This document shows, in pieces, positions 2,670 through 63,500 of a stretch of 64,000 nt of DNA. A program made the position numbers and the translations under genes. Below the pieces are notes generated by a model. It was not told the DNA's origin and did not search any database. It saw only the letters and a program-made list of their open reading frames with translations. Origin of the DNA: a virus (lineage: Duplodnaviria; Caudoviricetes). How positions within the stretch are numbered: position 1 is the first letter of the stretch; the number at the start of each line of letters is the position of its first letter. Location: IMG/VR virus record IMGVR_UViG_3300028886_000001; one strand, given 5' to 3'.

Positions 2670-3494
2670 CTATCTGTTACAATAATCTAATATTTCATTT
2701 CTTATATATGATTCAAGATTTATATTGAATACATCTCCTTCTTTACTAACCAATTGAACTCTTCTTCCATTATCTACTAGAGATGCTGTTTCATATAAAG
2801 TATCAAATGATTTTAATACAGTCTTTATATTAGCAGATTCTTCTTTGATATAATCCATTACTTGTTTATTAGTAATAGGTTCTATTATACCAGCATCGTC
2901 TTCAGGTAAGTATAATTTACTTCCTTCATTTTGAGCATATATATTTCCTGATTCTTCTACTATACCAGTCATATATGCAGCTTTATGAGATGGGAATATA
3001 ACCCAGTCCCAAGTAATAACTTTTATATTTTTTACTTCTGCTCCTCTATTAGTATTTTGAACAGAACCTAGAGCACGTAATGAAAATGATACTTTAGTAT
3101 CATCTAAAATAAAGTTATTGAAGTTTTCCCCTCTATCATTAGGAGTTCCTTTTACATGTGCTTTTATATTATTTCCTTCTTTCCAAAGTTTAAGTATCTT
3201 ATGTGATACATTATTAGGATCTATAGTTTGTTGTCTTGCTATATCCTTGCACATAGGATGTCCAGCTTCTCCACAGAAGTTTCCTGATTTTATTAATTCT
3301 ACAGTTCTAGGACATGTCAATTCTGGCATTAATTCTTTATCTGAATAGAATCTTCCATTTCTATTCTTTACATTCATATCTTGTAATACTGCTTCTATTG
3401 TTACCCTATTATTTTTTTCTCCTACTATAACTGGATCTTGTGGTTCAGAACTAGCAGTTTCGCATATTACAAATCCAATTTTACTATCTATCAT
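2670..3494 (-). CDS. prohead core protease (T4 gp21-like)
   Basis: NRNGRFY, GEAGHP (His), FSLRALG (Ser) and TWDWVIFPS (Asp) motifs. Confidence 0.9.
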   Translation of the reverse strand: MIDSKIGFVICETASSEPQDPVIVGEKNNRVTIEAVLQDMNVKNRNGRFYSDKELMPELTCPRTVELIKSGNFCGEAGHPMCKDIARQQTIDPNNVSHKILKLWKEGNNIKAHVKGTPNDRGENFNNFILDDTKVSFSLRALGSVQNTNRGAEVKNIKVITWDWVIFPSHKAAYMTGIVEESGNIYAQNEGSKLYLPEDDAGIIEPITNKQVMDYIKEESANIKTVLKSFDTLYETASLVDNGRRVQLVSKEGDVFNINLESYIRNEILDYCNR

Positions 3495-3629
3495 TATTAT
3501 TCCTCCTTTATATATAAATTAATAAGATGTTGTCTAACCTTATTTCATTTTTGTGCGTTACTATACTAGATAAGGGTAAATACGTTGAACTATATAATAA
3601 CTATAAAACTTTGAAAGGAATGATATACA

Positions 3630-6416: not shown

Positions 6417-7475
6417 ATGGGATTATATAATAGAGATAGATTCCTAAGATATATATCTGAAGCAGATGATGATGACGAAAATACTTATACTATGGGTAGT
6501 GCTGATGATCCTGATGATGATACAAATGATACTGGAGACAATAATCAGGACGATACAAACCAAGATAATAATGTAGATAATAATACTAATGATACACAAG
6601 ATGACAATACCGATACTGGATATAGTATGATATCTGCTGATGATCCTGATGATGATACAAATGATAATCAGAATAATAATACAGATACACAAGATAATAC
6701 TAATGATGATAATAATCAAACTAATGATACAGATAGTTATAATATGATATCTGCTGATGATCCTGATGATAATACAAATGATACTGGAGACAATAATACA
6801 GATAATAATCAAGATGACGCAGATAGTTATAATATGATATCTGCTGATGATCCTGATGATAATACAAATGATAATAATGGAGATGACAATGCAGATGGTA
6901 ATGATAATGCTGGAGATGGTGATGATTACACTATGGGTAGTTCCGATGATCCAGACAACCAAGACCAAGACAATACTGATGGGAATACAGATAATACTGA
7001 TTCCGATAATGGAGATGATGATAGCTATAATATGGGGTCTGCAGATGATGATAACAGTGATACAGATGATACTAATACTGGAGATGATAATACTGATGAT
7101 GTATCAGATGATACTGGAGCAGATCAAGATAAGATTAAACAAATAGAAGATGATTTGTTTAAGGATTTAACTCCAGAACAATTAGCTATTAAAAATATGG
7201 AGTTAAAACAAAGATACTTGGAATTATATACTGTAATAAATGATATAATCATAAGAGTAAATAAGATTCCTAAGAGAAGTTATAATATAAAAGTATTAGA
7301 GTTTACTGGATTGAAGTTAGTAGAGTTAAGAGATTTAGTACAAACTTATCTTACTTATACATTCAACACTAAGACCTATATAGAGAATACTATAAATTAT
7401 CAACAATACTTAGCTACAATGTCTACTATTAATAGTCTTTTGAGGGAAATAACACCTAAAAATCCAGAAATATAG
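6417..7475 (+). CDS. Asp/Asn-rich repeat protein, possible scaffold/core protein
   Basis: six Y-x-M-x-S-[AS]-D-D repeats; directly upstream of the capsid gene; ISE|A site near the N-terminus. Confidence 0.6.
   Translation: MGLYNRDRFLRYISEADDDDENTYTMGSADDPDDDTNDTGDNNQDDTNQDNNVDNNTNDTQDDNTDTGYSMISADDPDDDTNDNQNNNTDTQDNTNDDNNQTNDTDSYNMISADDPDDNTNDTGDNNTDNNQDDADSYNMISADDPDDNTNDNNGDDNADGNDNAGDGDDYTMGSSDDPDNQDQDNTDGNTDNTDSDNGDDDSYNMGSADDDNSDTDDTNTGDDNTDDVSDDTGADQDKIKQIEDDLFKDLTPEQLAIKNMELKQRYLELYTVINDIIIRVNKIPKRSYNIKVLEFTGLKLVELRDLVQTYLTYTFNTKTYIENTINYQQYLATMSTINSLLREITPKNPEI
6484..7050 (+). repeat. intragenic imperfect tandem repeats
   Basis: gatagttataatatgatatctgctgatgatcctgatgataatacaaatgata occurs at about 6732 and 6822; four more degenerate copies. 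Confidence 0.9.
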
Positions 7476-7499: not shown

Positions 7500-7511
7500 A
7501 ACAATATAATA
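7500..7511 (+). promoter_or_regulatory. late/nvRNAP-type promoter AACA-N6-TA (representative + strand copy)
   Basis: exact + strand copies start at 7500, 9324, 10954, 19211, 24116, 31336, 32793, 36113, 46376 and 50276, each just upstream of a gene. Confidence 0.85.
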
Positions 7512-7571
7512 AGCGTTATAAGCTGAATACAAAATAAAAAATAAAATTTTTATGAAAGGTGGTAGTTGTTT

Positions 7572-9302
7572 ATGCCAGTTATAGGTACAAGACCAAGTGA
7601 TAAAAGAAACAATGGCAAAGGTTATTTAAAAGATCCAATGTGTAAATTAACTGAATCTTTTTTAAACGTTGCCCAAGATATTGTAAATGAAAATTCTGTA
7701 GATATGTTCAGACATCCTGATATGGCTCTTATGAGAGGTACTGCAAGTAGAGACGCTATGAAGAATTTCTTCTGCAAAAACTCTTGCGATAGATCTAGCA
7801 TGGATCCAGAAGAATATGATGATCATATGGAAATGATGAGCGAACAATTTGAAAATGATTGTGATGGTTTATCATCATTTAATGAATATGCTTCAATGAA
7901 TACTTTCAACCCAGTTATTGGTATGATGTTCCCAATACATAAGAATTTACTTATGAACTGTATCTTTGATAAAGGTGCAATTCCTAAAGTAGTAATGAAA
8001 TCTCCAAAAGAAACAGTTACTATGGAAACTAGATGGTTAGTTACTCCAAAGGGAGAAAAGATAGATCTTTATAGAGATCAAAGAAAGATAAGTGATGCTG
8101 TTCAAAGCACAAACCCATTTGTAGAAGTTCCAGTTATCTTACCAGAAACAGGAACTACAGATGTATTAGCTGCTATTGGTGGTAGTTCTTTAGATAATTT
8201 ATCTATTGAAACTTCAATTTCTGCTATAATGGTTGCAGAAGACCCAGCTCATAAATTAGCTGATGCTTCATCTGAAGAAGATAAGAAAGCTGCTTTAGAA
8301 GCAGGTACATGGATAGATGTAGATATGCAATTCGTTACATCATATATGGATTATGATAGAAGTGTTATCGACCATGTAACTTATGATGATGGTAAAGGAA
8401 CAGTTAAGACTATTTGTATTTCTGCTACAATGAAGGATAACAAATTCCAAGTTGTAGATATGCAAGGAAATGCTTTAGCTGTTAAGATTAAAGCAAGATT
8501 AGATAGCTCAAATGCTATGCTTGATACTTGTAAAGTAGAATGGTCTGCTAGAACTGACTTAATTGAAGTTGGACCTGGTATTCCAATAAACGTACCAATC
8601 TCTCCTGAAGAAGTTAAAGATATTGGTGCTTTATATCAAGTTAACCAATTAACTAAGATTATGTCTATGATTAAATTAGTTATGGAAAATACTAAGGATG
8701 ATGATATCAAAGGATATCTTGATCAAAACTTTAATACTATGCCAAAGACTGATAAGATTCACAGAGTATTTGACTTTGCTCCAAGAGAAGGTTATATGCT
8801 AGACCATGTTGAATGGAGACATAAGACTTTCTTAGATGCATTAGATACTTATGTAACAGATATGCTTACAGTATTAAATGATCCAAACATGACTGTTACT
8901 ATATTTGGTAGACCAGATATCATAAGAAAGATTACTCCTACTGAATATAGCTATCAAAGTCCAAATAGTATAGGACCTGTTGAACTTGAATTCAACAAGA
9001 CTATAATGACTTCTGATAAGAGAGTATATCAATTCATGTCTTCAACTAAATTAAATGGTTCAAATGAATTAATTATAATTCTTTGCCCAAGAAATAGTGA
9101 TAGAATTATATACAGAATTTATGATTATCAAATGTATGTATCAAATGAAATCAGAAATGCTGCTAATCCTTCATTACCAGCAGTTCATGCTTTCCAAAGA
9201 TACAAAGTATGGAGTTACCAACCAGTTCAAGGAAGAGTTACTATCTTAAACCCAACTGGATTAAAAGGAGCTTACGACAGCTTAGGTTTCTCAGGTGTTT
9301 AA
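7572..9302 (+). CDS. major capsid protein precursor (probable)
   Basis: about 576 aa; own AACA-N6-TA promoter and downstream hairpin; acidic prodomain ending near FNE; near the protease and scaffold-like genes; ATG 7572 chosen by RBS spacing. Confidence 0.7.
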   Translation: MPVIGTRPSDKRNNGKGYLKDPMCKLTESFLNVAQDIVNENSVDMFRHPDMALMRGTASRDAMKNFFCKNSCDRSSMDPEEYDDHMEMMSEQFENDCDGLSSFNEYASMNTFNPVIGMMFPIHKNLLMNCIFDKGAIPKVVMKSPKETVTMETRWLVTPKGEKIDLYRDQRKISDAVQSTNPFVEVPVILPETGTTDVLAAIGGSSLDNLSIETSISAIMVAEDPAHKLADASSEEDKKAALEAGTWIDVDMQFVTSYMDYDRSVIDHVTYDDGKGTVKTICISATMKDNKFQVVDMQGNALAVKIKARLDSSNAMLDTCKVEWSARTDLIEVGPGIPINVPISPEEVKDIGALYQVNQLTKIMSMIKLVMENTKDDDIKGYLDQNFNTMPKTDKIHRVFDFAPREGYMLDHVEWRHKTFLDALDTYVTDMLTVLNDPNMTVTIFGRPDIIRKITPTEYSYQSPNSIGPVELEFNKTIMTSDKRVYQFMSSTKLNGSNELIIILCPRNSDRIIYRIYDYQMYVSNEIRNAANPSLPAVHAFQRYKVWSYQPVQGRVTILNPTGLKGAYDSLGFSGV

Positions 9303-23658: not shown

Positions 23659-24027
23659 TTATAAATCTGATAATTTTAATGTAGTACCATCTGATACAAA
23701 AGAATAAACCATTGTAGTAGATGATATAGTTATAAATACAACTTTGTTATTTAGACTATCAGTTCCCATTTTACATTTTACTGAGCTTAAAAGGAATTCA
23801 GGATAATAGTCTGTTATCTGTTGTTCTATGGTAGATTCTAGATCCATAAGCATATTGTCTCCAGAATATCTCCATCTAGTATTAATACCCACACCCATAT
23901 CAGGATGATTTGGATAAGTGCCAGGTTCTAATAATATAAGCCTGGTTAAAAATAAGCATTCTGCTTCGTATCCGTCGAGATGTGCAGGTTCGTTAAAGTT
24001 ATTTGTACTCATTAAATATTCTCTCAT
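23659..24027 (-). CDS. baseplate wedge / sheath initiator (gp25-like)
   Basis: LILLEPGTYPNHPDMGVGI motif; 122 aa. Confidence 0.75.
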   Translation of the reverse strand: MREYLMSTNNFNEPAHLDGYEAECLFLTRLILLEPGTYPNHPDMGVGINTRWRYSGDNMLMDLESTIEQQITDYYPEFLLSSVKCKMGTDSLNNKVVFITISSTTMVYSFVSDGTTLKLSDL

Positions 24028-24152
24028 TCTATTTAACCCCCTTTGTATTCGACTATTATTTTGTTTAATGTATTTTTTTATACTTTAATTCATTTACATA
24101 AGTTAAAATAACAAAAACATCTAATTAAATTGATATAAGGAGGTAATATATT

Positions 24153-26756
24153 ATGATAATAAATGAATCTTCTTCAGAGAGAAAGTTTAAGTGTCCTTAT
24201 TGTAATTATAAAGGTACAAGAGAAAGATTAGTATCTCATGTGGAGAATAATCACAAAGAAATGATACCAGAAGGATATACAGCAGCCAGAGTTGTATTCA
24301 ATAGCATAAATCATAAAGAGGTTGGACATTGTGTTCAATGTAAAGTAAATGAGACTAAATGGAATGAAGATACGTGGAGATACGAAAGATTTTGTTCTGA
24401 TAAGTGTAGAGATGCATATGTAAAAATGGCTAAAGAAAGAATGATTAAGAAGTATGGTAAAATTAATCTTCTTAATGATGAAGAACAACAAAAGAAGATG
24501 TTAGCTAATAGAAGAATATCAGGCACATACAAATTCAGAGATGGAGGAGAAAGAACTTATTGTGGTTCTTATGAGAAGAAAACATTAGAATTCTATGATA
24601 AGGTTTTAAATGTTCCATCTAAAGATATAATGACACCTGGTCCTACAGTAATATATGACTATGAAGGCGAGAAACATAAGTGGATAACTGATATATATTA
24701 TATACCTTTTAATCTAGTACATGATATAAAAGATGGTGGAAGCAACCCTAATAAGAGAAAGATGGATGAATATAGAGCTAAACAATCTGCTAAAGAAGAA
24801 GCTATAGTAAAACAAAAACAATATAATTATATAAGACTTACAGATAATAACTTCTCTCAGTTATTATTGATTTTAGCTGAATTGAAAGAGCAAATGATAG
24901 ATGACTCAGATAATAAGACAGAAAGGATAGTCGCTATTAATGAGACATCGGTAAATTCTAAATTAGATCCTAATTTTAAGAAAGGATCTAAATATAGTAT
25001 ATCATCTTATAAGAAGATAGATATATCTGATAAAATTATAAAACAATATAAACCAAAATACAAAGAGTTGAAACATATAAGAATTGGTGGGACTTATAAA
25101 GGATACTTATATATAGATAAAGATGAATTAGTAGCTTTATTAAATGTAGATACAGAAAAGAAAGAGATACAAGCATTAGAAATCATGAATAAATATAAAG
25201 GTCATGGGTTATCAAAGCAATTATTAGATATAGCTACTAATGATTTACAAGCAAATTCATTATGGGTAAATAAAAATAATGAAGTGGCTTTAAATATATA
25301 TTCTAAATACGGGTTTAAAGAAGTGTCATCATCAGGATTGATGATAAAAATGCAATTAAAAGATACTATTAATGAAAATAATAAGAAGTATGAATATGAA
25401 ACTGGTATAGATATATTAGAACCTAGGATGGATCTAAATAAAGCTACAAGATATGATGCTACAGATGAGAATAGAATATACTATCATATACCTAAGAGGA
25501 AATTAAAGACTGGAGATAAGTATAAAGGATTTATATATGTAGATAAACTTTCTTTAGTAGGATTTATAAATGTATTTATGGAGTCTCACTTTATAGATAA
25601 TCTAGAAGTATATTCTCCATATGAAGGCATGGGTATAATACCACAAATGATATCTCAAGCTGTAAAAGAATTAGGTGCTAGAAATATTACTGTAAGGAGA
25701 AGTAATAAAGCTCTTGCTGAATTTGTAAAAGCTTTAGGATTTGAGAAATATAGACATACTTCTACTATGGATTACTATACTATTAAGGATACTAATAATG
25801 AAGCATGTGCTGCCGTAATGGCTGCTATACCACCATTAAATCCTAATATATATGTAGCTGGATATCCTGCTCCTAATGTATTTACTAAAGCTTTAGAATT
25901 ATGTACTGATAAATATGGTACTAATACAGTAAAGTATAAAGATGGTAAGCTTAAGAAGTCAAAGATATCTATAGATGATAATGTACAGCTATATAAATAT
26001 AAAGGTAAGAGAAATATAAATAAAATAGTAAAAGAAATATATGAAGATATGAATAATGGTATAGAAGTAGAACCTTCATATATTTATGAAGCTATTACTG
26101 GAAGAATAATGATGACGCCAGATCAAATAGAATATGATGAAGACTTTGAAAAAGTAAATGATGGATTTACTGAAGCTAAATATAAGTCTCAAATAGAATG
26201 TGCTACTTTAGTTCATCAGTTTATACATGAATTAACTAAGACTGATTTTAAATTTGACATAGTAGATTATATATTAAAAGATAAAGCAGATGAAATATTG
26301 AAAGATTATGATAATCTTACAATAAGACAAGATGGCGTTGGTAGATTCATGGTAATCAATAAGCTAGATGGAAAGTGTAGTAACTTTTATTATACTTTAG
26401 ATGAAATACCAAGAAATATACTACCAGATTTAAATGAACCACCTAAAGATAGACCAGATATGATAGAAGAAGATGTAAAGGTATTGACTAAGAATGATTT
26501 TAATCTTCCTATATATGATGCTAAGCTTTTAAAGAAGAAAGATAATATACTTCATGACTATCATAATCTAGATATAGTGCAAAATAGTGTAGGTAGATTT
26601 ATGGTGATTAATAATAAGAATAACAAAGTAAGTCCATATTATGATGATATGGATGATATACCAGAAGGTATGCTTAGAGAATTAAATAAAGGAGATGGAG
26701 ATAGTGGCAATATACAATATGAAGAACCAAAAAGAATTGGAAAACAAGGAGAATAA
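24153..26756 (+). CDS. multidomain late protein: zinc fingers, PD-(D/E)xK-like nuclease, two GNAT domains, duplicated C-terminal module
   Basis: CPYC..H..H, CVQC/FCSDKC, TDIY..DIKDG; YKGHGLSKQLL..N..A..IYSKYGF; YEGMGI..N..LGF. Confidence 0.7.
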   Translation: MIINESSSERKFKCPYCNYKGTRERLVSHVENNHKEMIPEGYTAARVVFNSINHKEVGHCVQCKVNETKWNEDTWRYERFCSDKCRDAYVKMAKERMIKKYGKINLLNDEEQQKKMLANRRISGTYKFRDGGERTYCGSYEKKTLEFYDKVLNVPSKDIMTPGPTVIYDYEGEKHKWITDIYYIPFNLVHDIKDGGSNPNKRKMDEYRAKQSAKEEAIVKQKQYNYIRLTDNNFSQLLLILAELKEQMIDDSDNKTERIVAINETSVNSKLDPNFKKGSKYSISSYKKIDISDKIIKQYKPKYKELKHIRIGGTYKGYLYIDKDELVALLNVDTEKKEIQALEIMNKYKGHGLSKQLLDIATNDLQANSLWVNKNNEVALNIYSKYGFKEVSSSGLMIKMQLKDTINENNKKYEYETGIDILEPRMDLNKATRYDATDENRIYYHIPKRKLKTGDKYKGFIYVDKLSLVGFINVFMESHFIDNLEVYSPYEGMGIIPQMISQAVKELGARNITVRRSNKALAEFVKALGFEKYRHTSTMDYYTIKDTNNEACAAVMAAIPPLNPNIYVAGYPAPNVFTKALELCTDKYGTNTVKYKDGKLKKSKISIDDNVQLYKYKGKRNINKIVKEIYEDMNNGIEVEPSYIYEAITGRIMMTPDQIEYDEDFEKVNDGFTEAKYKSQIECATLVHQFIHELTKTDFKFDIVDYILKDKADEILKDYDNLTIRQDGVGRFMVINKLDGKCSNFYYTLDEIPRNILPDLNEPPKDRPDMIEEDVKVLTKNDFNLPIYDAKLLKKKDNILHDYHNLDIVQNSVGRFMVINNKNNKVSPYYDDMDDIPEGMLRELNKGDGDSGNIQYEEPKRIGKQGE

Positions 26757-28482
26757 ACAAGAGCCTATTATAAAGAAAACTCCTATCAAAGAAGATACAA
26801 AAATATTATCAGAAAAAGAATTTCAAATACAACTAGAATCAGCTATGAATATGAATACACTAGCTAAGCCATTAGATGAATCTATATCATTAATCAATAA
26901 GTATAAAGAGTCTAATAATATATTAGGATTATATGAAGAATTATCTAAATTATCTAAGATAAAGACTAATTCTATATATGAAGATTCTGTTATATCTAAA
27001 ACCATAAGAGATGCTAAACCCAAGTTTGATTGTAATATAAATAGTATATTTGATTATGTAAATGATTTACCATACTTCTTACCAGAAGAGATGGAAGATA
27101 TGGATATAACTATAGATAGCAATGGATTAGATTTAGGTAATGATGTATCTTTGAAAGAATGGTACAATAAATATAAAGCTACATGTTTATTAGGAAGTGT
27201 AAATGAATATAGTTCTTTATGGGTTAATAAACTTAAAGAGCTTTATTCAGATTATGATAAGATATTAGAATGTGGTAATGATGATAAAATAGAACAGAGA
27301 AGACTAGATATACTTAAATTAGGATGGAATCCAGAATTGCCTTTTACTATAAAGACTAGACAGATGGTTACAGAAAGGACAAGAAATAAATTAAAAGCTA
27401 GATGTAATGATTGTTGCATAGATATATCTGAAAGTTTTAAAGATGTATCTGATAATGATATAGTATTAGAAGGAAAGTCTTCTTATAGAGAACCATTGTT
27501 TGTAGCATTAAGTTATAGTGGATATGCTTTTAGTAATCTTATAAAAGTTTATACTCATTCTAAGTATTCACATGCTGCATTAGGGTTATCTTCAGATTTA
27601 AAACAATTATATTCTTTTAATCTAAATGATGGAAGTAGAGGATTCTCTGTAGAAGGAATAGACTCTTATAGGAAGATAAATGATAAAAGCGAAATAGCAG
27701 TATTTGTTACTTTTATACCTAAATATAAATTCCAACAAGTAAAAGCTAAGATAAACGATTTTGTAAAGAATATAGATAAGACAAGTTATAGTGTTTTAAA
27801 TATATTAGGATTAGCTGCTGGAGTAAATATAGAAAGAGAAAAAAGTATGATATGCTCTCAATTTGTAGATACTATATTAAAATCTATAAATATAAATGTA
27901 ACAGATAAGCCATCTGGTATAGTTACTCCTGCAGATATATATAATAATGCAGGTAAACTTATGTATAAAGTATATGACGGTCCAGTAACTAAATATAGTA
28001 AAGCTAAAGTAGATAGCATAATTCATAAGATAGAAAATAGTTTATCCATACATGAAGCAGTATTTATGAATGTAAAATCAACTCCAATAACTTTTGATGA
28101 AGATGGTAATCTTCTTATAAAGAATATGAAGAAGTTGGATTATGAAGCAGAGTATTCTAAGTGTCATAAGTTATTAGTATCATATGAAAAGACTAATAAT
28201 ATAGAAGGAATGAAGTATGAGTTATGTAAACTATGGTTTATGAATACTTTATTAGAAAAGAAGATATATAATAATAAGAAAGATGATAAGACTAAATATC
28301 ATAAAGCAAGAGCTAAGATACTAAATGATTTCAATTATTATCTTAAATATGTATGTAAACATGATAAAGACTTTAATTTTACAGAGTATTATAATAATAC
28401 TCCATTCTCAGATGCAGCTACTAAAATAGATAAACATACACTAAAGTATGGAGTTAGACTAATTAAATCTATATTAATATAA
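26695..28482 (+). CDS. late protein with internal permuted papain-like (YiiX/YebB-type NlpC/P60) domain
   Basis: SKYSHAALG (His) precedes MICSQFV (Cys), then VTPADI; true start may be GTG 26704. Confidence 0.75.
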   Translation: MEIVAIYNMKNQKELENKENKQEPIIKKTPIKEDTKILSEKEFQIQLESAMNMNTLAKPLDESISLINKYKESNNILGLYEELSKLSKIKTNSIYEDSVISKTIRDAKPKFDCNINSIFDYVNDLPYFLPEEMEDMDITIDSNGLDLGNDVSLKEWYNKYKATCLLGSVNEYSSLWVNKLKELYSDYDKILECGNDDKIEQRRLDILKLGWNPELPFTIKTRQMVTERTRNKLKARCNDCCIDISESFKDVSDNDIVLEGKSSYREPLFVALSYSGYAFSNLIKVYTHSKYSHAALGLSSDLKQLYSFNLNDGSRGFSVEGIDSYRKINDKSEIAVFVTFIPKYKFQQVKAKINDFVKNIDKTSYSVLNILGLAAGVNIEREKSMICSQFVDTILKSININVTDKPSGIVTPADIYNNAGKLMYKVYDGPVTKYSKAKVDSIIHKIENSLSIHEAVFMNVKSTPITFDEDGNLLIKNMKKLDYEAEYSKCHKLLVSYEKTNNIEGMKYELCKLWFMNTLLEKKIYNNKKDDKTKYHKARAKILNDFNYYLKYVCKHDKDFNFTEYYNNTPFSDAATKIDKHTLKYGVRLIKSILI

Positions 28483-28488
28483 TCTTAA

Positions 28489-28514
28489 AGACCTAGTGAG
28501 AAATCACTAGGTCT
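28489..28514 (+). terminator. intrinsic terminator
   Basis: AGACCTAGTGA-gaaa-TCACTAGGTCT plus T run. Confidence 0.85.
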
Positions 28515-28651
28515 ATTTTTTTACGTTAAATATAACTTACGAGTGTTAAAAGAATAATAGAACTTCATATGTTCTAATATATTTTTTAATTATATATTAT
28601 ACATGTGATTACAATGTAATCATAAAATTTATTTTAAGGAGGTTGATCTAA

Positions 28652-28813
28652 ATGATCAATGTTAAAAGATTAGAATGGTTTAAAAACGGAGGAGTTGAAG
28701 AACAATTTGAATGTATGAACGACATCACACAAATGTATGAAGAGATTGCTAAATCTATAAGACGTAAACTACTTGAAAGGTATAGCTATTTATCTGATAT
28801 AGTTATACATTAA
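28652..28813 (+). CDS. small early protein (53 aa; not in the ORF track)
   Basis: early motif at 28588, AAGGAGG RBS; MINVKRLEWFKNGGVEEQF...VIH. Confidence 0.75.
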   Translation: MINVKRLEWFKNGGVEEQFECMNDITQMYEEIAKSIRRKLLERYSYLSDIVIH

Positions 28814-28907
28814 ATCGCTAGTAATAATTTATTATGAAAACGTATATATATAGAGCCACATGTCTGGCTCTATTTTTTTTAAAATATAATTTAAAGGAGA
28901 AAAAATA

Positions 28908-54538: not shown

Positions 54539-57500
54539 TTATTCTACTGCCAATTTATTTAATAATTCCATTAGATATGCATTATCTGGATTTTGGTCTT
54601 GATTAGCATCTCTCATTACAGTCATAATTGAATTAGCAGTATTAGCATTATCAGCTGCTGTATTACCTGATCTATTAGCTAGTATTTCTACTATCTTATT
54701 TAATAGATTTGTATTATCTGATATCTTTAATAGAGTTTGTATTATAACTTTCAATAACTTGTTATAGTCTTGAGTTTTTAATGTAGTATTGTTGTTTTCT
54801 ATAGTAGTACTATCTGTAGGTCCGAATCCCATACCCTTAGAATTGTATGGTGTTCTCTTATTCTTAATCTTAGAATTCATAGGATTATCTGGTCCTGAAC
54901 CAGCATCTAATTTACTAATATATCCATCTAAATTATCTGTATCATTCATAGATATATCGGTTTTCATCTTAGAATCCATAGGATTATCTGGTCCTGAACC
55001 AGCATCCTTATTTTCACTATCACTGCTAGCATTTTCATCAGTATTCTTGAATCCCATTAAGCTATTAAATGCTCTAGTTGCTTTTGTTCCAAGTGTACTA
55101 AAGAATTCATATAATGAAGGTTTACTTTCAGTAGATTTACTAGATGAAGAATCAGATGATGAATTGCTATCACTAGAACCTGATGCTTTAGAACCATCTA
55201 ATTTCTTATCTGATATCCAAGCATGCATCATTCCAGCGTTCTTTAAATCTGTCATAGATACGGTTAATGGTTGATCTCTATATCCAGGATTGTTTATTCT
55301 TACATTACCATCTTTATCTGCATTTACTGCAAATACTAAATGTCCACCACTTGAGAATGGTCTACTTCCTTGTCCTGATAATATAGCTGGTCTATTGTCT
55401 TGTAAAGCTGGCAATAAAGTTCCATCATAGTCTGTTGTTTCTACCATGTTTATACCATATACTTTACCTTGTTTAGCAAAGTAATCCCATGAAGTACCTG
55501 CACCACTAATATATCCTCCATTATTTGTAGACCAATCAGCTGTTTCATCTGGAGTTACTGAATTATTAGTTACTGAATCTATAAGCATAGCCATAGATGT
55601 TGGTCCACAACCTGATCTTTGAACTGTTGAACTTCCGTATGGGTGACTAGCCCATCTTTCATCAAATTGCTGGAAGTATACTGCACCATTTTGTTTATCA
55701 GAGTCTTTTACATTACCGAATCCTACTCCAATACCTTTATGGTTAACTTGTTTGTCTGATTTACTATTTTGTACTCCTCCTATATTTAATAGTGAATTCT
55801 TCTTACCTTTATCTATATCTTTATCAGACTTAGAGTTTTGTACTCCACCTTTACCGAATCTTGATGTAAATGATTGATCACCACTTAAGTATGCATTAGG
55901 ATCAAATCTAGCTTGGTCTTTACTATCTCTTACTTCATAATGTAAATGAGGACCACTAGAGTTACCAGTACTACCTACCTGTCCTAATTTATCACCCATA
56001 CTTATCTTATCACCAGATTTAAATGTTATTCCGTTTCTATTAGGTAATGATTGCATATGAGCAAAGTAATGATAATTACCATTATGAGCATCATCAGAAT
56101 TAGTTTCAGCTACTTTTAATAAGTTTCCATATCCTCCACTAGATTCTGGAGATAATGATGATACAACTACACCATCTATAGGTGATATTATATCTTTTCC
56201 TTCTATATCTGATTTACTATAATCTATTCCTGTGTGTTTATGATCCCCTCTTTGCTCTTCATATGGTCCTGTAACTACTGCTCCACCTAATGTAGAATTA
56301 TACCAAGCATCTGAATCGTATTTACCTGTAGCAGATTTATATCCTGTTGTATTTGAAGAAGAACTACTTGACTTAGATGACTTATCACCATATCCAAATA
56401 ATGAATTTATTGATTTAGAAGCCAATGTAGCTAAATCTGTAAAGAAGTTCATTACACTTGGTTCAGATTCACTTGATTTAGAATTAGATGCCTTGCCATC
56501 ATAACTTGCATTATTATTTTCAGCTTTTGAAGGGTCATATGAACCATTAGTATTATCTACAGTATGTCCAGCTTCACCGCTTCTTGTTGTAGGTGTATTC
56601 CACATTATACTACTGATATTATTAATCCATTCTTCATTAGGGGAACCATCATCCATTTCTGCATACATATGATGCTTATCTGCATATTCCATCTTTTGTA
56701 ATGTATCTTGACCAGGAGTAGTAAAGTTATCTTTAATCCATTGAGCACCTTTAACAACACCGTCTTCTGGACTAGCAAAATCATAAGCTGAACTATAAGG
56801 AGTTGCATTATAAGCTGCTATACCAAATGGGTTATTTTTATCTTTCCATATTGTAGAACTACCCCAACCAGTTTCAAGCATACAATGTGCAAATATATAT
56901 TTAGGATCCAATCCAGATTTTTGACCAGCTTGTATAAATGCATCTGATAATTGAGATATACCAGTATCTTTATGCATTTTATCCATATAGTTTCTTAGCA
57001 AATCTGCATTAGTATCATATCCTATTTTTGAATCAAGTTTAGCATATCTTAAACTATTAGAATTATCAAATCCTGGATAATCTTCTGCTCCTCCTATATT
57101 TTTATTTACACCTTGAGCCATGGCTAATTGCTTATCTGTAACTATTCCACTAGCTTTAGCCATTCGATTTATTGTATTTATATCGTTATAAGGTTTAGCT
57201 CCAGAGCCTATTCTTATATTTGATTTCTTTTTATTTCCTTTAGCAAAGTCTTTATTTGCTTGTAATACTTTGTATGCTAATTGAGATTTATTTTCTGTAG
57301 AAGTTCTTGATCTTAATTGGTCTTTTGATAAAGTTCTATAATCATGATCAAATATAGGAGATCTCTTTCCTTTTGCTATATCTTTATCAGATTTACTATC
57401 TTGAACTCCACCCCATCCAAATGCTGAAGCAATTTTATCTTTTACAGCTTTTACACCATATAGCCATGGCATTGCAATAAATGCTCCTTTCTTTATACCA

Positions 57501-60500
57501 GACCATACTTTACTCATTATTCCTTGTTTTTTAGTATTATTATTAGATGGATCTCCATCTTTATCTTCATTCTTATCTGCATCTATGTCTCCGTTTTCTA
57601 CTGCATTATTATAATCTTCTAATGTATATGATACACCATATTTATCATTAAACTCTGCTAGTTTAGCTTGAGCTTTTTCTCTTTGTTTTAATAAATCCAT
57701 ATCAGTTTTACCACATACATTTCCTACTATAGTTGTAAATAATGATATCCACCACTTAGTAGGGAATAATCCTAAAGTAACTACCCCATTTAATGCATTT
57801 ACTAAACCAGCTATAATCTTAGATGAAGTAGATGGTTCTTCTGTTATTCCTAATATATTCTTTGCATCACTATAACCAGTTATGAAGTCATATACTGCAA
57901 ATGCTATATTTATCAAACCTGCTGATCCTATAAATCCTGCTATCTTACCTATAGCTTTTGCTAATGTCTTACCAACAAGCTTTTCTGCTAATTCTTTAAG
58001 CAAAGTTGGAAGTCCTTTTTCTACTAAAGCTTTAGCTACATTTTCTCCTAATAGCTTTTGTACTTTTGAATTACCTACTATTTTCTTAAATAAAGAACCT
58101 ACTTTAGCAAGGAATTTTCCTTTTAATGCACTATGTTCGGCTGAATTAGCAGCTGTTTCTACTACCTTCTCTACTCCTTTTTGTCCTGCTTCTGCTACTT
58201 TAGTAGCCCCTTTACCTAATGTATCTGCTGCTATATTTGTACCAGTCTTTGCTAGTTGTTTATTAGCTTTAGCTGTAGCAAAGTCTATTACTTTTGCTCC
58301 GCCTTTAGATGCTTCTTTTGCTACTTCTTCTGTAGCTTCTTTAGTAGTATTTTTAATAGTCTGCTCTACTGCTTCTTGTCCAGCATTTTTACCTATACCG
58401 AAACTACGATCTAGTACATTATGCACACTATATTTACCGTTACCTATTTTATCTATTGCAGACATTGCACCTTGTTTAACTGTTCTGAATGGATGCATTA
58501 CCTTTCCTAAAGTAGATGTGGCTTTAAGTGATTTAGTAGCTGAATTAAATATAGGTTTAAATATAGATCCTCTACCACCTGTAAGAGCATATTTACCAAG
58601 TGCTTTAACAGATCTTTTGCCTAGATTTCCTAAAGAAGAAGTACCTACTTCTTCTGCATTTACTTGATTTCCTTCAGAGTCCACATATGTTTGACTATCT
58701 TCATCATAATGAACATCTTTAGCATCTATTTGATTTCCTTCTGCATCTGTATATATTGTTTGTCTAGTATCTTGGAAACCTAATTTCTTAAGCCCCCAAT
58801 TAGCTATACCCTTTGCTGATTTGCCAAGGAAACTTAGTATAGCTTTACTTATATTTCCTATAGTTCCGTCTCCACCAAATATAGATCCTATTATAGAACC
58901 ACCAAGAACTAATTTAAGTATTTTGCCTAATCCACTAAATCCACCTAATAATTCACTTATCTTAGATTTAGCTTTATCTTTTACTTCTTCTCCTTTTATT
59001 ACTGCTGCTTGTCCTACTGCTGCTCCAACCTTTCCAAGGTTTTCTAAAGCCTTTTGTCTTAGTTCTTTATTTGATTGTATATCTTTTATTGTCTTTCTAG
59101 TCTCTGGATCAGATTTATCTGGTTCTAAGTCACCATCTTTATTTCTTTCTACTCTATATACTTGCATATCTGAAGTAAGCAAATCTGTCTTGTGATCATT
59201 AGGATTATCATCAAGTATACCACCAGAAGGTCCATTATCTGCTTCTTGTTGTTTCTTAGCTTTATCTATACCACTAGTATTAGTATTTTGAGTAGCTTTA
59301 TCTACTGCTTGTTGCCCTTCTGTCTTTTTGCCATGTCTATCATTATAATAGTCTAATGCGTCATTAGCTACATCTATATCTTTAGTTTCTGTAGTATTAT
59401 CTTCTTCTGGTTTTTCATTAGCTTTAGCTTGTTCAAGTGCTTCAGCATTTTCTTTAATCTTATCTTGTAAGCTTGGTAATTTACCAGTTTTAGCTAATGC
59501 TTGTTCTTCTGGTGTTGGTACATAATTTGGATCTGCAGCCATCTTTAATTGAAGTGATACTGTTTGTACTACTGATAATAATTCTGTTTGGAATTTACTA
59601 TCACGTGCTTCTTGAGCTTTTAATAATTCATTTTGCTTATATTGTAATTTTTCTGTTTCTGTCATTCCTGCTAACTTTTCTTGTTTTCTAGCTTCTCTAT
59701 TTACTTTTTCAGATCCTAATAATTCTAATAACTTACCACTATCAAGACTCTTAGTAATATCTACACCAAACTTTTCTTTCATAGTTTGTTCTAGTTTACT
59801 CATATCTTCTTCTGAAGTCTTATAAGAACCATTTATGAACTTATCATATTCTTTGGCTTGCTTTTCCATAGTTTCTATTATGGATTTTCTCTTAGCACTT
59901 TCCATTTCTCTCTTAGCTATATTTGATAATTCTTCGTCTGATTTATCACTATAACGTCCATTCTTTCTAGCATCCATAATAAATCTATCTACATCGTCTT
60001 GAAGTTCATTTCTATTAGCATAGTCAAATTTAAGAGTACTTGCTAGTATCTTAGCACCTTCAATATCTCCATTATGAACTGCATTAAGTATTTTCTTAGC
60101 ATTGCCACCTTTGAAATATGGATTAACAGTATTAGCTAAGTCTTTAACTTGCTCTTTTCTCATATCAAAGTTCTTATCTTTTACTTGTCTATATCCTATT
60201 AAGTTTTCTCTTAATTTAGATAAGCCTTCATCATCTAATTGAACTATACCTTCATCGACTTTTCTAGCTCTAGTAGCTGTATCATTATCTAATGTCTTTA
60301 TAACTCCTTCTGGTACTCCAAAACTTCTTGCTAAGTCTTGTATTGCACCGCCAGCAAGATTTCCGTATCTTATATATTTATTATAGACATTCTTATTTCT
60401 TTCGTCCATTCTTTCTTGAGCTGTAGTATTTCTAGAGTATCCTCTATTAATATTGAATGTCTTTTCTCTATTAGATATAAATTTAGCTACACCACCTATA

Positions 60501-63500
60501 GCTTTAGGTCCTAAACCTAATAATCCTATAGCCGCTTTACCTACTAATCTAAATGGTGATAATATAGGTTTAAGCAATTTATCTTCTAGCCATTTTCTGA
60601 ATGGAACACCTTTAGATTTCATAAATCTTTCATCTAAGAAATCTTTAAGTGAACGAGCCGCACTTTTAAATAATCCAGTAACCATGTCTTTTGTATTAGA
60701 CATTAATTCCTTAAGTGGATTAAACAATACTTCATTAAGTTTTGATTTAAGTTTATCTTTAGTTTTAACTAAAGATTTCTTTAATGGATTGATTAAGTTA
60801 TCTCTTATAGTAGGTAATAATCCTCCTTGATATTCTCCATTATCATCTTGAACGCCAAGTACATATTCTCTAAATTTATTATTTGTTGTAGCTAGTCCTG
60901 CTGCTGCTCCTAAAGCAACACTAGGTAATAATCCAAGTCCAAATGGAGTTGTTACTGCTCCTAATAGTGCTCCTATACCAGCATGAGGTGCATATTTATC
61001 TACTTTCTTCTTAAACTCTTCTTTATCTCCAAATAAAGAATTCTTTGAATCTCCAAATAGTAAATCTTGCACTGTATTACTATTCTTAACAAATCCTGCT
61101 GTAGCTCCTAATATCATACCACCTACAGGTCCTAAAGGTCCAAATGGTAATAATCCAGCTACTCCACCTACTATACCAAGTCTTTTAGCATCTGGGAATG
61201 CTTTATTTATAAACTTAGTAGCTTTCTTAGAGAAGACTCCGCCTTCTCTTTCTCCGTCTTTTCCTACTTCTCCAAATAACCAATTTTGCATAGCATCGCT
61301 TTTCTTAGTAATTGCTATACCTGCTCCTACAGCTGCTCCTAATAATGGACCACCTATAGCTCCAGTTAATAATGAAACTCCTCCACCAATTAAGCCACCT
61401 GTTATAGCTTCTGGTGCATATTTATTTATATCTTTAGTAATACTATCTGCAGCTTTCTTAAAGTTCTCTTTGTTCTTTTTAGAGCTCTTACCAAATAATG
61501 AATCTGAGAATGTAGTTACACCATTTATTGCTGTTTCATACATTTTTTCTACATATGGTCTAGCTTGTTCATATGATGCTCTTAATTGAGGATCTAATGG
61601 AATACCGTTTTCATCGAAGTCTTGTTTATTATGAAGTGCTATCTTATTATAAGTATTCTTTATTGCCTGAGTAGCATATTCAGCTTTTCCAGATTCTTTT
61701 AATTTTCTAAATGCATTTCTTACATTAGCATCTTTAAAACCTTCGCCTTCTATTATACTTCTATCTTCGAAACCACCCATTTCATCATTTAAGTTTTGCA
61801 TATCAGTAGCAAACTTATTGAAAGCATTAGTTCTTTCTTTTTGACTATCTGATTGTAAAGCTTTAAATAATGTAGTTAATCCTTGTTGAATCATTGTACT
61901 AGATTTACTTATTTCTTGTACACTATCAGCAGATACTACCATTTCGCCTTCACTTAATGTAGCTACTGTAGATTCATTTACACCTTTAGCACCTGTACCT
62001 TTAGCAAAGTGTGGTGTAGAACCCCACATATAGTCATACATAGCTTTAATTAAGCCTTTAAGTTTATCCTTCATTGCATTAGATTCTTCTTCATAACCTG
62101 GCTCTGTTCCTAAATCCATATCTCCAGGTAATACAATACCAGAATTAGTAGCCTTCTTAGGTTTACTTGATTTACCTAATAACTTATCTCTTATGTCTTT
62201 TACATATTCTAATATCTTAGAAGTTGTATCTGTTTGAATATTTATTTGGTCGTTAAATCCACCTACAAGTCCTGGATGTTGTTCTACAAATTCATCAACA
62301 GAACCACTAGTATCTTGTGCCATCTTTAGATTATCATTAGATATTACATCTAGTATTGACATCTTAGTTTTATCTATTTTATTATCAGATGTAAATTTAT
62401 TTAATACATCCATAGTCTTCTTATAAGATGCAAATTTATTTTCTATCTTTTTAACTTCTTCTGGAGATTTAGCATTCTTCTTTGCAGATTCTATCATTTT
62501 AGTATATTTATCATTACCAGAAGAAAGATCATTATATAAATCATTTAGTGTATAACTATCTAATTTATCATAATCATTTATATCAGTAATATTATTAGTC
62601 TGATTTCTTAAGATTGATTTTAATACATTCTTACCAGCTATGTCTAATCCTAATTTATCAGCTAACTTGTCATATCTATCTCCAAATTCATTTCGTAAAA
62701 GTTCCCTTTCATTAGCTTTGATACCAGGCATGACATCTTTATAATGTCTTAAGTACTTATTGTTTTGGAGATAAGTTAAGTATTCATCTGTATTGTAGTA
62801 TTGTTTTCTATTACTTAATTTACTCTGTAATTCATTTATCTTTTTAACTACAGCTTCAGGTATATTTTTCTTATTATTTGGATTAGTATATTTAGATAAT
62901 AATCTATCTAATTCTTTCTTATCTTTTTGTGCTTGCCACTTACCTTTTTGGATTTGCTTTAATATTGTAGGTCTTAACTCAGCATTTTGCTTCTTTGCAT
63001 CATTATAATTGAACTCCATATATTTAGATTTTACTGATTCTGAAGCAGCTGCATCATTATATGGATCAAAGCTAAAATTAGAATAATAATCTGATGATTT
63101 TCTTTCTCCATCTGTCATACTGAAATTATCATGTACAACACCATTTTCATCCATAGATGCATATTCATCAGTTTCATCTTCTTTGATAGCATTCCTACTT
63201 AATTTATTTGGTTTTTTCTTACTCTTTATTTTATTAATCAGAGGTCCGAAGGTATCACTAAACGCTCCTTTGACACTATCCTTAACTGTTCCCCATGCAG
63301 ATTTTAAAGAGTCCTTTATACCTGTACCTAAACCTTTGAACCTATCTTTTAATGGGTTTATAATAGTATCTTTAAAGAAGTCTTTTATGTTCTTCTTTAA
63401 ACTATCTATTCCTGTAGCTTCTTTTAAAGGCTTTAATACTTTCTCATCTAAGAATTCATTGAATCTTTTAAAAGTATCTTGCATCTTTTTTATTAAATGA

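Follow-up and report, generated by a model that had tools for sequence, protein, structure and literature searches.

A YaeF/YiiX-like enzyme as the constant core of a modular jumbo-phage protein with candidate head-protease sites in its linkers

The 64,000-nucleotide (nt) stretch of IMG/VR virus record IMGVR_UViG_3300028886_000001 analyzed here (the window) contains on its plus strand the open reading frame (ORF) P0001, located at 26695 to 28482. Profile comparison and a modeled fold confirm that the central domain of its product, called M, is a divergent YaeF/YiiX (C92) branch of the permuted NlpC/P60 enzymes with an intact His293/Cys387 pair, lying below the Pfam thresholds. M is the constant core of a large modular family of jumbo-phage proteins and is framed by linkers with conserved motifs ending in glutamate. 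These motifs resemble the cleavage sites of head proteases of the T4 gp21 type, and P0001 is probably cut into pieces inside the capsid. The full mechanism proposed below, comprising packaging into the head, cutting by the head protease, ejection, and the action of a lipid-directed enzyme, is regarded as somewhat probable.

An AlphaFold2 model of P0001, built on 75 homologues and judged by the predicted local distance difference test (pLDDT), divides the protein into the following parts:
26695..28482, plus strand: P0001, ORF of 595 residues
26695..26982, plus strand: N-terminal low-confidence region, propeptide-like (residues 1 to 96), pLDDT mostly <60
27031..27429, plus strand: N domain (residues 113 to 245), helical in the AlphaFold2 model
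27430..27477, plus strand: linker 1 (residues 246 to 261), with ISE246↓S and the conserved VLE259↓G260 (27463 to 27474); the arrow marks a proposed cut
27478..28050, plus strand: M domain (residues 262 to 452), permuted NlpC/P60, YaeF/YiiX (C92)-like
28051..28086, plus strand: linker 2 (residues 453 to 464), with IHE454↓A455 (28048 to 28059) at its start
28087..28479, plus strand: C domain (residues 465 to 595), a beta hairpin plus a helical bundle in the AlphaFold2 model

Three domains are modeled with confidence (N 113 to 245, M 262 to 452, and C 465 to 595), the pLDDT falls below 50 in the linkers at residues 255 to 261 and 453 to 464, and the predicted template modeling score (pTM) of the whole model is 0.44. 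The model therefore describes N, M, and C as independently folded domains that behave like beads on a string, with no confident packing between them. A first-pass annotation of this ORF had placed a papain-like domain with the histidine ahead of the cysteine at 27472 to 28056. The ORF is present with the translation given there, and the span corresponds exactly to residues 260 to 454 between both proposed cuts, the folded domain being modeled at 262 to 452. The motifs quoted for the domain are found as YSHAALG (residues 291 to 297; 27565 to 27585), CSQFV (387 to 391; 27853 to 27867), and TPADI (411 to 415), and those of its flanks are found as IVLEG (256 to 260; 27460 to 27474) and SIHEA (451 to 455; 28045 to 28059), together with the more distant QLES (46 to 49), LDES (60 to 63), YKES (70 to 73), and ISES (244 to 247).

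The family profile matches PDB entry 3kw0, a YaeF/YiiX-like "cysteine peptidase" from Bacillus cereus, with E values of 1e-7 and 4e-8, and the alignment pairs the histidine, the signature tyrosine, and the Cys-Ser-x-Phe-Val motif. The top Foldseek matches of M are 3kw0, 2if6 (YiiX), and 6v98 (TseH, a type VI secretion system [T6SS] effector). The structural Z score (VIA) reaches 15.2 with 2if6 and 3kw0, at a root mean square deviation of 2.7 to 2.8 over 145 to 152 residues, and 10.4 with TseH. Among the matches in BFVD are C92 proteins that stand alone, encoded by phages, giant viruses, and poxviruses (OPG091). H293 (27571 to 27573) and C387 (27853 to 27855) are invariant in 225/225 homologous M domains; H293 lies N-terminal of C387, which is the permuted order, and both are aligned to the His and Cys of 3kw0. 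Y365 (27787 to 27789) is retained in 216 of these homologues, with Phe in the rest, and aligns with the Tyr of the "GYD" motif of 3kw0; the signature tyrosine is Tyr127 in BcPPNE and Tyr115 in YiiX (PMC3142127). E320 (27652 to 27654), on the next strand after the position 15 residues past the histidine (His+15), is Glu in 221 and Asp in 4 of the 225 homologues. The first-pass reading of M as a papain-like, permuted NlpC/P60 domain is borne out by the profile match to 3kw0 (E of 4e-8) as well as by the fold (Z of 15.2).

Some features speak against this assignment. The canonical third catalytic position, His+15, is occupied by F308, and the homologues carry Phe (160) or Tyr (65) here. The third triad residue of BcPPNE is Glu64, 15 residues after the His, while PPPDE1 has Phe at this position and resembles P0001 in this respect (PMC3142127). 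P0001 yields no Pfam C92 match even at an E value of ≤1, and PF05708 matches just 6 of 61 family M domains at an E value of ≤0.1, with a best E value of 2e-4; it is the most frequent Pfam match among family members. Searches of the PDB with the single P0001 sequence gave only an E value of 2. Because Pfam barely matches and the placement comes from profile-to-PDB and fold evidence, M is called a divergent branch. The only PHROG that matches the C92-like domain (residues 277 to 418), phrog_1128, is labeled "enoyl-CoA hydratase/carnithine racemase-like," a name that fits neither the fold nor the profile matches and is probably wrong.

M shares the His-before-Cys order, the signature Tyr, the Cys-Ser-x-Phe-Val motif, and the fold with the YaeF/YiiX-like enzymes (PF05708 Peptidase_C92; 2if6, 3kw0 BcPPNE, and poxvirus G6R/OPG091), whose standalone viral members have the same fold as M. 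These enzymes are standalone proteins of ∼180 residues, whereas M is embedded between two helical domains lacking relatives in a protein of 500 to 1,900 residues. A further difference is the Phe/Tyr at the third catalytic position of the P0001 family, with the invariantly acidic Glu320 one strand further. In YiiX, the S1 pocket is hydrophobic and holds a fatty acid, and the pocket of permuted NlpC/P60 enzymes is narrow and judged unsuitable for peptides (PMC3142127). LnsA carries out lipoprotein N-acylation (PMC7387801), and Tox-Act1 and TseH show phospholipase activity (PMC12994826). LnsA, LRAT/PLAAT, Tox-Act1, and TseH have the permuted catalytic core in common with M (PMC12994826, PMC7387801), and the T6SS effectors Tox-Act1 and TseH are delivered into another cell, as is proposed for M; all of them differ from M in belonging to other clades of the permuted group and in using other delivery routes. 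By analogy with YiiX and these four kinds of enzymes, the most likely activity of M is hydrolysis or transfer of a fatty-acyl group, with a lipid or lipidated protein as the substrate.

M could instead be a virion-borne cell-wall hydrolase that cuts peptide bonds of peptidoglycan for DNA entry rather than acting on lipids. Jumbo phages commonly carry NlpC/P60 proteins as virion-associated lysins (PMC7824862), and TseH was first proposed to be a cell-wall endopeptidase (PMC12994826). The gene also adjoins, and diverges from, a small ORF (23659 to 24027) which is placed like the AR9 g232 "base plate wedge subunit" relative to a shared Zn-finger nuclease gene, a likeness of position only. We consider this function unlikely, given that M comes closest in both sequence and structure to YiiX and 3kw0, which are reported to have a pocket of the lipid type and a bound fatty acid (PMC3142127), that TseH is now known as a phospholipase (PMC12994826), and that a Pfam search detects no cell-wall-binding domain. 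A location in the tail would, in addition, leave the head-protease motifs of the linkers unexplained.

An exhaustive search at an E value of ≤1e-3 places P0001 in a family of 1,511 cluster representatives (50% identity) with lengths of ∼300 to 1,900 residues. M is detected in 227 of 230 recovered homologues, the search having been seeded with an M-containing protein, and the domain order is N-M-C in 172 and M-C in 44 of them. In nearly all homologues having it, the C domain lies at or a few residues from the C terminus (median overhang of 5 residues). N-terminal extensions reach 1,092 residues with a median of 245, and insertions at the M-C junction extend to 1,100 residues or more, those at the N-M junction being smaller. 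The variable parts carry GNAT, P-loop kinase, Metallophos, DUF6582, NUDIX, HD, and transglutaminase domains, with P-loop kinases, GNAT, and DUF6582 found in the insertions at the two junctions. An N-terminal "LEELExxW" domain occurs in ∼50 homologues and is absent from P0001. The family is found on IMG/VR contigs of up to 210 to 290 kb and is present once per genome in five related jumbo phages. Its member usually directly follows a gene like that of the upstream partner P0002 or carries a GNAT domain fused to its own N terminus: the pair is adjacent in relatives G003, G004, and G005, and GNAT is fused to the P0001 homologue in G001. Relative G003 also encodes (L035:6683-9319) an 878-residue homologue with apparently two tandem M domains and no C domain.

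Since M occurs in 227 of the 230 homologues while extensions and inserts vary, it is, as far as sequence comparison goes, the constant core of this modular family, and the cassettes are the rest of the protein. The first-pass annotation had treated M as swappable cargo, a view which does not hold in the light of this distribution and of the constant presence of H293 and C387. Its question whether homologues lack or swap the domain at the same junctions is answered largely in the negative for M itself, although other domains are inserted or dropped exactly there. The counterposed picture of an invariant and structurally integrated domain is half true: M is nearly invariant in the family, yet it is not integrated, as indicated by the pTM of 0.44 and the flexible linkers.

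The second line of evidence comes from the linkers. VLE259↓G and IHE454↓A fall in the two low-confidence linkers, and the N-terminal 96 residues contain the candidate sites QLE49↓S, LDE62↓S, YKE72↓S, and IYE96↓D; an [IY]-Y-E motif ∼26 to 30 residues ahead of the N-domain anchor recurs in homologues. Taken alone, P0001 shows a marginal excess of [LIVMFY]xE[SAG] motifs (five versus 2.2 expected; P of ∼0.06), all five of which are confined to the low-confidence 24% of residues (0.24^5, or ∼8e-4). Across the family, a hydrophobic-x-E motif is present within 22 residues before M in 208 of 225 homologues (92%) and within 25 residues before C in 218 of 219 (99.5%), compared to 47% of background windows in each case. 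The spacing of the motif is fixed at 8 to 10 residues before the Pro267 anchor and at 5 residues before Pro464. A column-by-column scan for motif conservation returns the three linker sites as the strongest positions outside the folded helices. In unbiased logos, P1 is Glu in 59/74 sequences before M, 58/60 after M, and 68/74 before C, and P3 is I/L/V in 67/74 before M and 66/74 before C and I/V/F in 47/60 after M; P1' is mostly S/A/E/G before M and A/V before C. In the M-C linker, the two sites are 0 to ∼90 residues apart, depending on the homologue. The kinase or GNAT cassettes at the junctions are bracketed by the same motif in every inserted cassette examined, and an M-less family member, P0209, keeps both sites. 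The motifs are nonrandom, and their reading as candidate protease sites is well supported by conservation.

The proposed cutting enzyme and a second candidate substrate are encoded in the same window:
2670..3494, minus strand: head-maturation protease (T4 gp21-like, Peptidase_S77), the proposed cutter, with Pfam and PHROG matches
7566..9302, plus strand: major capsid protein (MCP) precursor, with a match to phrog_20655 from residue 112 onward

The protease matches PF03420 (44.5 bits versus a cutoff of 27; E value of 1e-12) as well as phrog_207 and phrog_3014, "head maturation protease" (E values of 9e-29 and 4e-26). Black, Showe and Steven are said to have described in 1994 a preference of the T4 protease for Leu or Ile at P3. 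The head proteases of T4, phiKZ, 201phi2-1, and SPN3US cut after Glu, that of SPN3US preferring A-x-E with Ser at P1' (PMC10052503, PMC5694885), and gp21 processes the ejection proteins of T4 (PMC7411985). Cutting of P0001 by the head protease is proposed because the I/V/L-x-E↓S/A motifs of the linkers match the cut-after-Glu specificity of the gp21 type and the phage encodes such a protease. In the MCP, the N-terminal region contains DIVNE42↓N, which resembles DIVLE↓G of P0001 from the same phage, and SFNE↓Y just ahead of the conserved mature part. Comparison of the N-terminal 110 residues of the window protein and 23 relatives shows I-L/V-x-E↓S/N near residue 42 to be conserved, and A-[IV]-x-E↓Y/H is conserved in the same set just before the mature part; the two motifs are candidate maturation sites. 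P0002 has Glu-ending motifs between its Pfam domains, and an I-N-E motif right after its Zn-finger/nuclease domain is kept in 4/4 phages. The simplest reading of these motifs is that one protease would act on P0001, P0002, and the MCP. Three further elements of the first-pass annotation agree with these results: the Glu-ending motifs on either side of M fall in disordered linkers and are kept by the family, the neighboring gene has the same architecture, as the conserved I-N-E of P0002 illustrates, and the phage has a candidate protease for release of the domain in the gp21-type enzyme, whose family cuts after Glu.

The closest precedents are T4 Alt, IPI to IPIII, and the ejection proteins of phiKZ and SPN3US, whose phages likewise encode a protease of the gp21 family. 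The candidate sites of P0001 resemble those of these substrates in ending in Glu, with a hydrophobic P3 (as in T4) and a small P1', and its N-terminal region with several such sites is comparable to the long propeptides of SPN3US (PMC10052503, PMC7411985). The known cases remove N-terminal propeptides, whereas the candidate sites conserved in the P0001 family lie between folded domains. If cut, P0001 would undergo a polyprotein-like processing that releases several enzymes, unlike the propeptide trimming of T4 and SPN3US.

The invariant Cys-His pair of a papain-fold cysteine enzyme also raises the idea of a self-processing polyprotein, in which M would cut its own linkers, and those of P0002 in trans, like the zincin peptidases proposed for polyvalent proteins or the papain-like proteases of viral polyproteins. 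M is the constant element while the other domains of the family vary, conserved sites lie within ∼10 residues of both of its ends, and for polyvalent proteins a processing peptidase of their own has been proposed (PMC5512222). This route appears very unlikely, because the S1 pocket of permuted NlpC/P60 enzymes is narrow, hydrophobic, and judged unsuitable for peptides (PMC3142127), while P1 is Glu here. The same motif is conserved in the propeptide region of the MCP without a link to M, the M-less family member keeps both of its sites, and the phage already has a protease of a family known to cut after Glu.

The window is part of a virus record of 213,202 bp, which has direct terminal repeats and a G+C content of 28%. 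Its MCP is 20 to 23% identical to the MCPs of phiR1-37, AR9/PBS1, and large Staphylococcus myoviruses, and the window encodes a split multisubunit RNA polymerase beta subunit, a GroEL-like chaperonin, and the T4 gp21-type head-maturation protease. On the basis of these identities and genes, the source is an uncultured jumbo phage and a distant relative of the AR9 group (AR9, PBS1, and phiR1-37).

P0001 lies in a two-gene unit with the following further features:
24116..24127, plus strand: promoter-like AACA-N6-TA element, 26 nt upstream of the P0002 start
24153..26756, plus strand: P0002, the upstream partner (867 residues), with a Zn finger/nuclease, two GNAT domains, and C-terminal repeats
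28489..28522, plus strand: intrinsic terminator closing the two-gene unit, with an 11-bp stem, a 4-nt loop, and a T run

The ORFs of P0002 and P0001 overlap by 62 nt in different reading frames, and no terminator is found between them. The true start of P0001 is likely the GTG at 26704, which gives 592 residues and is preceded, nine bases ahead, by the ribosome-binding site AGGAG (26690 to 26694); the database protein P0003, 98% identical to P0001, begins at P0001 residue 4. From this codon the N terminus reads MAIY and fits the family leader M-x-I-[FY]. An N terminus of the form M-[AGPST]-I-[FY] (26704 to 26715 in the window) is found in 26 of 230 proteins of the P0001 family, compared to ∼1 expected by composition, and the P0002 homologue of relative G005 (L032:4837-4848) starts with the same type of leader, MGIF. 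It may be a leader common to these proteins or a tag for targeting. The 62-nt overlap and the GNAT-fused forms of relatives raise the question whether P0002 and P0001 are joined by a frameshift; this was rejected as the default because P0001 lies in the +1 frame without an evident slippery site, GTG 26704 has a good ribosome-binding site ahead of it, and this codon is also the start of the database homologue.

The promoter-like element upstream of P0002 belongs to the class AACA-N6-T[AG], which fits a promoter of the AR9-type phage RNA polymerase. The class is depleted across the whole window (44 versus 83 expected), and 18 of 58 matches sit 5 to 90 nt upstream of same-strand ORF starts, compared to 2.1 expected. 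The ORFs preceded by it include the head protease and MCP genes; other examples in the window are located at 3520 to 3531 (minus strand) and 7500 to 7511 (plus strand). A scan for sigma-70 promoters gave fewer matches than a shuffled sequence. Downstream of the unit, an ORF of ∼53 residues with its own ribosome-binding site (28653 to 28814, plus strand) lies between the strong intrinsic terminators 28489 to 28522 and 28850 to 28881.

In the proposed mechanism, P0001 would be made from the two-gene unit together with the GNAT/nuclease protein P0002 and incorporated into the prohead, where the head protease would cut it into separate N, M, and C pieces. Additional enzyme cassettes of relatives would be released in the same way. 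The pieces would then be ejected with the DNA into the host, in the manner of T4 Alt and the internal proteins or the ejection proteins of SPN3US and phiKZ, and M would there act on lipids or lipidated proteins. The first-pass annotation had likewise suggested an injected enzyme, with membrane lipids, lipoproteins, or defense proteins of the host as possible targets.

Several points count against this mechanism. In P0001, Asn459 (28069 to 28071) replaces the Glu of the I/V-x-E↓A-K site which most homologues carry 5 residues before Pro464 (kept in 68/74), leaving P0001 with IHE454↓A only. The M-x-I-[FY] leader is only a hint of a capsid-targeting signal, and pieces that come apart would have no obvious need for the strict N-M-C order. 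The AACA-N6-T[AG] element also precedes nonstructural genes, e.g., a dCTP deaminase gene, and is therefore no proof of late expression. N and C are shared with no other protein of the same phage, the search for paralogues of N, M, or C elsewhere in its genome having found none. A tblastn search finds no homologue in the cultured relatives AR9, PBS1, Staphylococcus S6-type phages, and phiR1-37; among cultured phages, the only match is a 26%-identical, 290-residue "cysteine peptidase" of the Fusobacterium JD-Fnp phages, covering M alone.

Some of these points would suit an uncleaved, multidomain enzyme that stays in the cytoplasm and is not packaged, serving, e.g., membrane or lipoprotein remodeling in the infected cell, with the I-x-E-S/A linkers as docking or structural elements. 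The packaging of P0001 itself is an inference, the promoter-like element is not specific to structural genes, one conserved site is lost, and the strictly kept domain order is that of a protein working as one chain. Such a role is nevertheless improbable, because the motif is identical in form to the cleavage sites of gp21-type proteases, falls in the disordered linkers as opposed to the folded parts, brackets every inserted cassette examined, and recurs in the MCP precursor.

At the level of the family, the variable order of GNAT, kinase, NUDIX, HD, phosphoesterase, and other effector domains resembles that of the polyvalent proteins described by Iyer et al. 2017 (PMC5512222). P0001 itself contains only the C92 domain, and its partner P0002 contains the nuclease and the two GNAT domains. 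The hallmarks of polyvalent proteins (MuF, ArdC, zincin MPTase, and assemblin-like) are absent from P0001 and P0002 and from the 25 most frequent of 48 Pfam families in the variable regions, and papain, NlpC, YaeF, and LRAT are not mentioned in that study (PMC5512222). The two systems differ further in that polyvalent proteins are proposed to have a built-in processing peptidase, whereas a separate head protease is proposed here. By analogy, the P0001 family would extend both known kinds, the protease-processed ejection proteins and the polyvalent proteins.

A wider and more tentative proposal concerns the AR9-related jumbo-phage clade with genomes of 210 to 290 kb. The head protease of these phages would serve as a polyprotein processor, with long cassette proteins loaded into the prohead and cut at I-x-E↓S/A joints. 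The products, all of which would enter with the DNA, would comprise interchangeable enzymes of host takeover (GNAT, kinases, NUDIX, HD, and others) along with two helical domains not described before and an obligatory C92 enzyme, which would be lipid directed and modify host membrane lipids or lipoproteins at entry. We regard this scheme as possible, though rather doubtful as a whole. If true, the family of 1,511 representatives would offer a wealth of unannotated phage proteins that enter the host at infection, and the simple sequence rule I/V/L-x-E↓S/A in linkers would show where each of these enzymes begins and ends. The capsid protease would do more than trim propeptides and would release several enzymes per chain, and a lipid-directed papain-like enzyme would be among the first phage proteins to meet the host. 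The analysis also calls for a correction of the probably misleading "enoyl-CoA hydratase-like" label of phrog_1128.

N and C are defined here as two new conserved domains, with no current family assignment for either. Modeled alone, the N domain reaches a pLDDT of 88.6 and a pTM of 0.79, and it carries a nearly invariant G-W-N-P motif (residues 210 to 213; 27322 to 27333). It has no match at a Z of 5 or above among PDB representatives, none at a template modeling score of 0.4 in the ESM Atlas, and none in a Pfam search; it is a candidate new domain family, although missing relatives do not prove a new fold. The C domain gives only generic three-helix-bundle matches in structure comparison and nothing useful in the ESM Atlas.

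Two other ORFs of the window stand out. Just upstream of the MCP gene, 6417 to 7475 (plus strand) encodes an extremely acidic protein of 352 residues with a helical C-terminal tail, a start containing RYISE↓A, and about six repeats of Y-[STN]-M-[IG]-S-[AS]-D-D-P-D-[DN]; it looks like a scaffold or core protein. At 54539 to 64000 on the minus strand, a giant ORF of >3,071 residues continues past the end of the window.

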